From Waddliaceae bacterium (lineage in GTDB: Bacteria; Chlamydiota; Chlamydiia; Chlamydiales; SLOH01): a stretch of 40,267 nucleotides of DNA. The notes beneath the pieces were generated by a model. That model searched no databases and was not told the DNA's origin. It saw nothing but the letters and a program-made list of their open reading frames with translations. Positions 31,381 to 33,161 of the stretch are shown here, in pieces. The stretch spans positions 1-40,267 of the forward strand of contig JBBDJA010000006.1 of assembly GCA_040880105.1 (NCBI GenBank), given 5' to 3'. Position 1 is the stretch's first letter. Each line of letters starts with the position of its first letter. Made by a program: the position numbers and the translations under genes.

Positions 31381-32847
31381 ATGGCTAATATTCCACCGTT
31401 TTCCGGATCCAAATGGGAACTATCAAGTGCTTCAGCAACCCCCTCTGGCTCAGCAAGTGGCTTCTTTTCAGATGAACTCACTCCAAGAATTGACCATTTG
31501 TATCAACAAATTCAGTCTTCAGCCCCTCTGCCCTCTTCTGTTAGATCATCTCCCAGTTTTAGCTCCCTTAGACTTGATGTTTCCGATGATGAGAATGTAT
31601 CTCCTATGGTGAGTCCAATCGTGTTCTCTGGAGATGATGAAAGTCAATTCGCAAGCCCAATCTCCGGATTATCTATTAAAACAAGAGATTTGGGGCGACG
31701 CATTTTAAGTTCAAACTTAAATACCGTACCAAACGTACTCCTTGGTTATGAATCAACTGCGATTGATCATGTGAAGCAGCTCCTCTACAAGCAAGCAGAC
31801 ACACTTTGTGAACCTAACCCTGAAATTCTAAGCGATGAGGAGAAGGAATTGATCAACATAAGGTATGACAGCATGAAAGCTGTAGGAAGTGGAAATACAA
31901 AACCTAAATTCCTAGTAAAATCTGACTTTGAAGAGGGAAAACAAATTGGGTCAAGTGTAAGGGTTGCGATTGTAAAACCATTAACTTCTTTAAATAAAGA
32001 TCAAAAAAACGCAATTAAAATGATCGTACAACGCAATATCGAAAGCATTAGATCAAGTATAGATTCAGACGCTAAGATTGTAGATGTGATAGAAAAAAGC
32101 GGAATCCATCAAGAACTTGGAACTTATTCCGGCATCAATGAATCCGATCTTGCCATCAGAGAAATTATTGCATATTTAATTGGTAAGGATCTCGGTGTTC
32201 CAACAACTGTAGTGCGTATGGTGGAGCATGAGTTAAAAACTTGCCAAAAATTCATTCAGAACATCGGTACAGGTCGGAAAGTCGGTGAGATCTTTCCGGA
32301 TAAACTTGGAACAAAACAGGATACCGATCTTATCTCCTTTCAGAAAATGGCTGTTTTGGATGCTCTGTTGTATAATCGGGATAGAAACCCGGGTAATTAC
32401 TTAATCACTGAAATCAAGGTGGGAGAGGACTTAAAGTATGGTTTTGTCCCAATCGATCATGGAAACACTTTACCAAAAGGTCTGCCTTTCGACCCAAAGG
32501 AACACCACTGGGAAAAATGGGAAGTTGCAAGTGAACCTATCAGTCCTGAAATTCGCGGTATTATAGACAAAATCACATGGAAATCTGTCTCTAAGTCACT
32601 TCAAAAGTATCCAAATATTGATAAAGCCACAAAAGCTGCGCTTTGCTTTCAATTACACCTAATTAAGGCTCTTTTCGCAAGTAACGACAAAATTACCGCT
32701 CAACAACTTGTTGATGAATCGTCTCGTTTTCTTGCCCCTAAAGACGGGCGTAAAGAGTCTATTGAAAGTCAATTGAAAGCCTTTGAGGAAAATGAAGATG
32801 ATTTTGTTGAGAAAATCTCATTATATATAAGCGAAGATTTAAAATAA
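31381..32847 (+). CDS. PI3/PI4-kinase-fold protein resembling type II PI4K-gamma; candidate secreted effector
   Basis: VAIVKP, AIREIIAYLI, LGVPTT, QKFI, QKMAVLD..LYNRDRNPGNYLI, PIDHGNTLP, WEKWEVASEPISPE; Ser-rich low-complexity N-terminal ~100 aa. Confidence 0.85.
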   Translation: MANIPPFSGSKWELSSASATPSGSASGFFSDELTPRIDHLYQQIQSSAPLPSSVRSSPSFSSLRLDVSDDENVSPMVSPIVFSGDDESQFASPISGLSIKTRDLGRRILSSNLNTVPNVLLGYESTAIDHVKQLLYKQADTLCEPNPEILSDEEKELINIRYDSMKAVGSGNTKPKFLVKSDFEEGKQIGSSVRVAIVKPLTSLNKDQKNAIKMIVQRNIESIRSSIDSDAKIVDVIEKSGIHQELGTYSGINESDLAIREIIAYLIGKDLGVPTTVVRMVEHELKTCQKFIQNIGTGRKVGEIFPDKLGTKQDTDLISFQKMAVLDALLYNRDRNPGNYLITEIKVGEDLKYGFVPIDHGNTLPKGLPFDPKEHHWEKWEVASEPISPEIRGIIDKITWKSVSKSLQKYPNIDKATKAALCFQLHLIKALFASNDKITAQQLVDESSRFLAPKDGRKESIESQLKAFEENEDDFVEKISLYISEDLK

Positions 32848-32861
32848 ATACGGAGAAAATA

Positions 32862-33161
32862 ATGCCTACTCTATTCAATAATCTTAATAATAAAGTGATC
32901 TCATTTGACGATGATGATTGGCCCACTTTTCATAGTAAATTTTTTGAAAATGAAATGTTTACTTCAGGAATTGACATACCGGTATACATCCAAAATGAAT
33001 ACGAATTTGAAGGCAAAAAACTCTCCACAGTCTATCCACCTAAACCCATAGAAAATCCCGATAAAGATGATAAAAAAATTGCAGGTCTTTTCAAAAAGGC
33101 TCTAGTTGAGTGGTATTACCCTATAGAGCTGAAAAAAGAAGGGTTTTATTGGAATAAATGA
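32862..33161 (+). CDS. Small hypothetical protein probably co-transcribed with the kinase
   Basis: GGAGA RBS; ATG 14 nt after the kinase stop; 99 aa, aromatic-rich, 17 D/E versus 13 K. Confidence 0.75.
   Translation: MPTLFNNLNNKVISFDDDDWPTFHSKFFENEMFTSGIDIPVYIQNEYEFEGKKLSTVYPPKPIENPDKDDKKIAGLFKKALVEWYYPIELKKEGFYWNK

Follow-up and report, generated by a model that had tools for sequence, protein, structure and literature searches.

In Legionella, metaeffector pairs are encoded by neighbouring genes, one of which modulates the activity of the other in the host. In the HipBST systems of Legionella and E. coli, the PI3/4K-like kinase HipT is encoded beside the antitoxin HipS, a partner of about 100 aa; HipS reportedly prevents ATP from binding, and HipT of Legionella has been called an effector (PMC9325769). 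The T6SS pair Tle/Tli of Enterobacter cloacae likewise places a lipid-related enzyme beside a partner that has a signal sequence and downstream alternative starts, and the forms of Tli differ in role: Tli is reported to be a two-location immunity protein whose cytosolic form activates the Tle phospholipase (10.1101/2023.03.28.534661). Class I T3SS chaperones such as CesT are another case of a small gene beside a likely effector. Eukaryotic type II PI4Ks, represented by human PI4K2A and PI4K2B, have to our knowledge no protein regulator comparable to the one described here, and none was found in the literature.

Here we describe a kinase gene and a small partner gene in a stretch of 40,267 nt from a Waddliaceae bacterium, which we call the window and which belongs to a genome of 1.67 Mb in 32 contigs. 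We found no account of chlamydial PI4KII-like kinases or of the partner in a search of full texts that included few subscription journals and did not extend to supplements (those of PMC3482391 and PMC9758233, for example, could list such kinases). The module is likewise not described in the consulted passages of PMC9758233, PMC3482391, 10.64898/2026.09.18.752743 and PMC13573033. What is new is the unnamed partner family, its predicted dual-start switch and, possibly, its fold.

The kinase gene and its small neighbour

The upstream gene of the pair is a 488-aa open reading frame (31381-32847, plus strand) whose predicted structure and alignment identify the product as a type II PI4K-like kinase; its catalytic residues are intact. 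The best fold match of its model (pLDDT 75) is PI4KIIα (4pla; Z 22.0, rmsd 4.0, 286 residues aligned), and it stands, with a further PI4KII match at Z 21.6, well above CtkA at 13.4, HipA at 11.2, HipT at 11.0 and MavQ at 10.3. Pfam returns only a sub-threshold PI3_PI4_kinase match for the window kinase (E 4e-5); a profile of 37 members of its family matches human PI4K2A/PI4K2B over the catalytic domain at E 1.5e-31, the next family scoring 3e-4. The catalytic residues K199, E261, D334, N339 and D359 (the Lys, the αC Glu, the DRxxxN loop and the IDxG Asp) are present and conserved. Unlike PI4K2A and PI4K2B, with which it shares the fold and this catalytic-domain match, the chlamydial kinase is bacterial and has a dedicated partner gene beside it. 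The CCPCC motif is absent both from the window copy and from the chlamydial kinases of the family alignment, and the window copy has KPLTS in place of the Glu equivalent to E157, which is kept in 20 of the 37 family rows. E157 is a residue of the PI pocket and CCPCC the palmitoylation motif of PI4KIIα (PMC3974213). The fold is common to MavQ and CtkA, yet the window kinase belongs to a different subfamily from the bacterial PI kinases MavQ, LepB and CtkA, and the protein encoded beside it is a small domain, not an enzyme, that is conserved in many families of the order.

Residues 1-100 of the kinase hold 26 Ser, a level reached by two of the 709 long ORFs of the genome, and we infer that this Ser-rich N-terminus is likely a secretion signal. 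The genome carries a T3SS export gene (FHIPEP, E 6e-228); this gene and the N-terminus together are only suggestive of a T3SS effector. The kinase would likely be an effector sent into the eukaryotic host.

The partner gene (32862-33161, plus strand) encodes 99 aa of the cytosolic type, with GIxIP and FxKAFxExYxP motifs and no signal peptide. Its ATG stands 14 nt past the kinase stop, and a Shine-Dalgarno-like GGAG, read from the sequence (32851-32856, plus strand), lies directly 5' of it. The initial annotation had described a mildly acidic, aromatic-rich ORF with its own ribosome-binding site at this distance from the kinase; the product indeed has a pI of 4.95 and 18% aromatic residues, and all the motifs quoted for it, EMFTSGIDIP and GFYW included, occur in the sequence. 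We regard the small ORF as a real gene, since it has a homolog at 65% identity and purifying selection acts on its relatives. As also noted at the outset, the pair is closed by convergent prfC, which lies on the minus strand, ends at 33314 and is separated from the partner gene by 152 nt. A weak hairpin in this interval (33207-33249) is a candidate terminator that does not reach significance (z = -1.54 and -0.96), and a terminator scan of the interval found none. Of the candidate promoter proposed upstream, what stands is position: an extended -10-like element, TGTTATAAT, occupies 31352-31360 (plus strand), 20 nt upstream of the kinase ATG. Statistics do not back it, given three extended -10 matches in the window against 1.8 expected and a sigma-70 scan at chance level (8 sites against 8.1 expected), with none directly 5' of the kinase. 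The kinase gene has no obvious Shine-Dalgarno sequence.

Elsewhere in the window, a 243-aa ORF (30021-30752, minus strand) has a signal-like N-terminus, a GCARSGT motif and a weak Sulfotransfer_3 match (E 0.21), and genes for tRNA-His (24747-24821) and tRNA-Leu (29240-29322) lie on the plus strand. The former falls within the ORF at 24711 when that ORF is read at full length, which puts the true start of its gene further downstream.

The partner family and its linkage to the kinase

The 99-aa protein is a member of an unnamed family of 80-100 aa. A profile built up from eight sequences picks out 172 representatives (E <= 0.001) among 1.84 billion proteins; in the best 150 of these, length ranges from 71 to 135 aa in all but one, a tandem form. 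The initial annotation recognised no named family for the small protein and was right in this: no Pfam family is matched by more than one of the 150 listed members, and the partner itself has no match in Pfam, NCBIfam, PADLOC or PDB sequences. Among the 11 named relatives with the partner gene, three are Chlamydiae/Rhabdochlamydia records and eight are labelled Verrucomicrobia or uncultured; the window genome is probably that of an environmental chlamydia. Viral contigs and plasmids gave no partner match, no RNA holder was found, and fused, longer forms were absent from 7,232 candidates, which is weak evidence. Four metagenome matches were rejected as partial and without a score on either profile, except one at E 0.22; the notion that the partner is a split piece of the kinase domain was rejected after comparison.

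The partner model (pLDDT 97.1, pTM 0.88) consists of three strands, two short helices and one long helix. A search of 48,161 solved chains gave VIA as the best match at Z 2.4, Foldseek gave nothing at E <= 0.001 in the PDB and viral libraries, and the ESM Atlas gave only leads below 0.9 with TM of at most 0.42 for the partner and no usable match for a second member. The predicted fold is possibly new, blank fold searches being no proof of it.

Two of the proposed affiliations found no support. Against an antitoxin of HipBA/HipBST type, the partner aligns to 14 HipS-like Couple_hipA sequences with an hhalign probability of 0.3 (E 0.19), and Couple_hipA is matched by none of the 150 listed members. 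In the fold comparison, which weighs neither way, HipA residues 8-107 do match the partner model (Z 2.0, rmsd 4.4, 60 aligned), tied with unrelated rows. The kinase is far closer to PI4KII (Z 22) than to HipT (Z 11.0 and 10.3), the partner is usually downstream, and the locus has no HipB-like HTH third gene; upstream there is only a 90-aa ORF (30892-31164, plus strand), 216 nt away, which has no significant Pfam match and may not be a gene. Couple_hipA genes do occur in 17 of 61 related genomes (loci L135-L149), several of them as stand-alone HipS-like ORFs, and none in the window genome. A classical small acidic T3SS chaperone fared no better. The CesT profile matches none of the 150 listed members, and the three CesT genes of the genome lie elsewhere. 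The CesT fold does not appear among the 18 rows with Z >= 2 for the partner model, which weighs neither way. Although the window copy is acidic, acidity is no trait of the family, whose cores have a pI below 5.5 in 60 of 151 cases and above 8 in 46, and a hydrophobic extension of at least 14 aa in 32 of 151 does not fit a cytosolic-only protein. The partner thus differs from CesT in its size of 80-100 aa, its mixed pI, its many members with signal peptides and its predicted topology. By analogy, the module may work like an effector-immunity or metaeffector pair: it is HipT/HipS-like in layout (PMC9325769) and fails the HipBST and CesT sequence tests.

Across the phylum, the partner family is present in 109 of 400 genomes, and 104 of 144 partner copies lie within 700 bp of a kinase. 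Thirty-five of these adjacencies were called from coordinates, 31 of which were later fetched and confirmed, and the kinase profile, built from partnered kinases, favours the detection of such kinases. The partner is downstream on the same strand in 90 of the 104 cases, upstream in eight, divergent in four and convergent in two. With at most five candidates scored per genome, the kinase was found in 219 of the 400 chlamydial genomes sampled: 95 of the 109 with a partner and 124 of the 291 others, kin not being independent. In one family (f35), 29 genomes of 1.0-1.3 Mb yielded neither gene.

The window genome holds two partner genes and two kinases, arranged as two pairs, a joint duplication. 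In the second pair (G000:C22:83401-85037, minus strand; locus L006), which sits between asd/dap genes and sdhC, the genes for a 464-aa kinase and an 81-aa partner overlap at stop and start. The two partners are 27% identical, and BLAST gives no alignment between their kinases (best E 0.26). For 72 kinase-partner pairs, tree distances are correlated (Mantel rho 0.44; permutation maximum 0.18), and in 53 of them the partner's nearest neighbour ranks within the three closest to the kinase; such a correlation is expected from linkage alone. The trees and the start-site counts given below leave out L121 and L122 (weak matches in longer ORFs), L123 and duplicate loci. The adjacency, the pairing of both paralogs and the congruent trees bear out a conserved module of a kinase and a small partner of no named family.

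Partner arrays follow a single kinase at three loci, with two copies at L068 and L073 and four at L123. At the last (L123:1235-5930, minus strand), the kinase is followed by four tandem genes of 188-249 aa that open with the partner domain and then by a transposase-like ORF; it looks like an immunity array. Elsewhere, a partner with two tandem domain copies lies upstream of a kinase (L003:1195-1743, plus strand), and a 55-aa kinase-like fragment lies shortly past an intact pair (L002:1965-2132, plus strand).

The expectation that homologs would consistently neighbour PI4K-like genes holds for the 104 copies and not for the remaining 40, which have no kinase within 700 bp; the independence from kinases that would have spoken against the module is a property of these copies and of some kinase-less genomes, set against the adjacent majority. 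Among the 40, about seven stand at a contig end, one is part of an array that follows a kinase, and a further two are weak matches. When 10 of the 14 partner genomes without a kinase match were retested, nine still had none, including single-contig genomes that are 99% and 97% complete. We conclude that the kinase and its partner do not form an obligate pair. Orphans are under purifying selection (dN/dS of 0.03, 0.12 and 0.47 in examples), and cytosolic-only orphans are under selection where the kinase has been lost (L016, L022, L024, L025, L030, L036, L040 and L098). At a conserved locus of phospholipase D, kinase and partner, several genomes lack the kinase and retain the partner. In family f29 (L016-L040; for example L017, L025 and L037), the order is what we take from its sequence to be a phospholipase D gene, a short kinase and the partner, often followed by a presumably UbiD-like gene, and the kinase has dropped out repeatedly.

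Kinases also stand alone. The 124 genomes noted above have a kinase match and no partner match, no clear partner lies near 40 kinases picked as partner-less (one weak downstream match, E 0.02), and none lies near six such kinases picked earlier; kinases thus often seem to be tolerated alone. One clade, representing few independent events, comprises 15 partner-less kinases with their own signal-like N-terminus (L129, L130, L133, L155-L158, L160, L162 and L164-L169), which are possibly Sec-exported. PI4KII-like kinases at L186, L187, L191 and L193 form tandem pairs and are partner-less as well.

Two start sites in signal-bearing relatives

An N-terminal extension of at least 14 aa is present in 36 of 151 representatives, and 32 of the 36 are hydrophobic like Sec signal peptides. 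These were called heuristically, by hydrophobicity and by eye and without a trained predictor (L107, flagged by the hydrophobicity filter, was excluded on the judgement that it has no signal peptide; L034 and L077 were included on inspection). The other 115 representatives, the window partner included, have no such extension, nor does its paralog. Relative to the kinase stop, the extension ATG lies between -20 and +30 nt at 28 of 33 loci, and it overlaps the stop at 19. Purifying selection acts on the extension (pS 0.44, pN 0.07; six pairs).

All 34 signal-bearing, kinase-adjacent genes carry, where the domain begins, a second start that is in frame and has a ribosome-binding site. In the first 17, this internal start is ATG in 16 and TTG in the seventeenth. 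In all 16 genes compared with synonymously recoded versions, the native internal Shine-Dalgarno is the stronger one (mean -6.1 against -4.1 kcal/mol; 0 of 500 simulations). A test set fetched after the prediction was made contained 31 paired loci, 17 with an extension; the internal start is GTG in one of these and ATG in the other 16, and no Shine-Dalgarno energy is weaker than -5.2. In the 11 signal-bearing orphans, the six codons that precede the domain contain no ATG, GTG or TTG; a Met does occur within the domain at L099 (one codon in) and at L020 (three codons in). When the start columns are excluded from the tree, these orphans occupy four places, three of them sister to paired genes (supports 0.81, 0.92 and 0.94), so that, as read from the sequences, the internal start was lost together with the kinase in four lineages. 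Kinases adjoining signal-bearing partners have no signal peptide themselves, except at L126.

One gene is thus predicted to yield an exported and an in-cell form in the signal-bearing relatives, and the window partner is predicted to be made in the cytosolic form only. The start-site pattern indicates that the cytosolic partner is likely needed only when the cell makes its own kinase, and the exported form likely has another role. It also points to a direct functional link between kinase and partner, which we consider very probable; that the two proteins bind each other directly is probable, to a lesser degree. A complex prediction in which kinase domain and partner were both given as alignments (score 0.00, mark 0.32) was counted neither for nor against binding. 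Unlike Tle and Tli, the proteins here are unrelated to those two and include a kinase and not a phospholipase, the organism is obligately intracellular with a T3SS, and the cytosolic-only form is the commonest.

What the partner may do

Our preferred reading, to which we give a probability of roughly 0.45, is tentative: the partner may be an immunity-like inhibitor with a neutralising role towards the effector kinase. The kinase would be made as an effector for the eukaryotic host with its dedicated partner encoded beside it, and the partner would bind it inside the bacterium and keep it off, as immunity proteins do toxins. In signal-bearing relatives, protection from the cell's own kinase would fall to the cytosolic form; the exported form would target kinases located outside the cytoplasm and be retained after kinase loss. 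A neutralising role is favoured by the partner's place downstream of the kinase, by the arrays and lasting orphans, and by the lack of partners beside the self-exporting kinases of one clade. Toxin followed by immunity is the usual gene order, and a small gene conserved directly downstream of an enzyme, with orphans and arrays, is the layout found here. Orphans that persist in near-complete, kinase-less genomes resemble orphan immunity genes and are unlike chaperones. Against an inhibitor stand the kinases often found without a partner. In addition, the periplasm has no ATP, so an exported inhibitor would have little to do there.

An activator or chaperone would account just as well for the dual-start pattern. 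Here, the cytosolic partner would be an activator or a folding or export chaperone for an active kinase, as Tli is for Tle, and the exported form would neutralise separately. The internal start retained only beside a kinase, the overlap of the upstream start with the kinase stop and the Tli precedent, by which the same pattern can mean activation (10.1101/2023.03.28.534661), all agree with this, and chlamydial kinases without CCPCC may need a helper. Yet cytosolic-only orphans are kept under selection after kinase loss, many kinases are partner-less and the family lacks a CesT match in a genome with three true CesT genes; we consider this reading somewhat unlikely, if one to be taken seriously. 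It is also possible, but unlikely, that the partner is a substrate of the kinase or a reader of its product, such as a phosphoinositide-binding co-effector, for which no stable complex would be required. Signal-bearing forms could reach the host or inclusion, orphans would still be useful with host-made product, and the missing E157 equivalent may allow a protein substrate (for the role of E157, PMC3974213). This would leave the cytosolic start kept only beside the kinase unexplained, and most conserved partner positions are hydrophobic or structural; neither a Ser/Thr nor a basic patch is invariant.

We find it hard to see the partner as a subunit that tethers or targets the kinase to membranes in place of the palmitoyl anchor of eukaryotic PI4KII, with the partner's hydrophobic N-terminus as an uncleaved anchor. 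The partner-less clade of kinases with their own hydrophobic N-terminus would fit, but most representatives, including the window's, have no extension, anchored orphans occur without a kinase, and basic N-termini would predict a domain facing away from the cytoplasm. Least credible of all is mere hitch-hiking, in which kinase and partner genes travel together with no functional link. Non-adjacent copies, many lone kinases and the relatedness of the genomes could be cited in its favour; adjacency nevertheless persists through four arrangements and through the loss of BLAST similarity between kinases, and in four lineages the kinase and the internal start have disappeared together.

Returning to the immunity-like inhibitor, a bolder and unlikely version would make the partner family a natural type II PI4-kinase inhibitor with a new fold, an antidote to chlamydial PI4KII-like effectors whose second start gives rise to an exported form that blocks host PI4KII or the kinases of co-infecting symbionts. 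If true, such an exported inhibitor would explain the survival of exported orphans after kinase loss. According to a review, C. trachomatis relies on host PI4KIIα to form its vacuole, and inhibitors of type II PI4Ks are few (PMC13573033). Over half of the sampled chlamydial genomes carry a PI4KII-like kinase of their own, and the joint loss of internal start and kinase provides a clean natural experiment on dual-location immunity proteins. The small, confidently modelled partner without a fold match is a lead to a new mechanism of kinase control and possibly to a genetically encoded PI4KII inhibitor.
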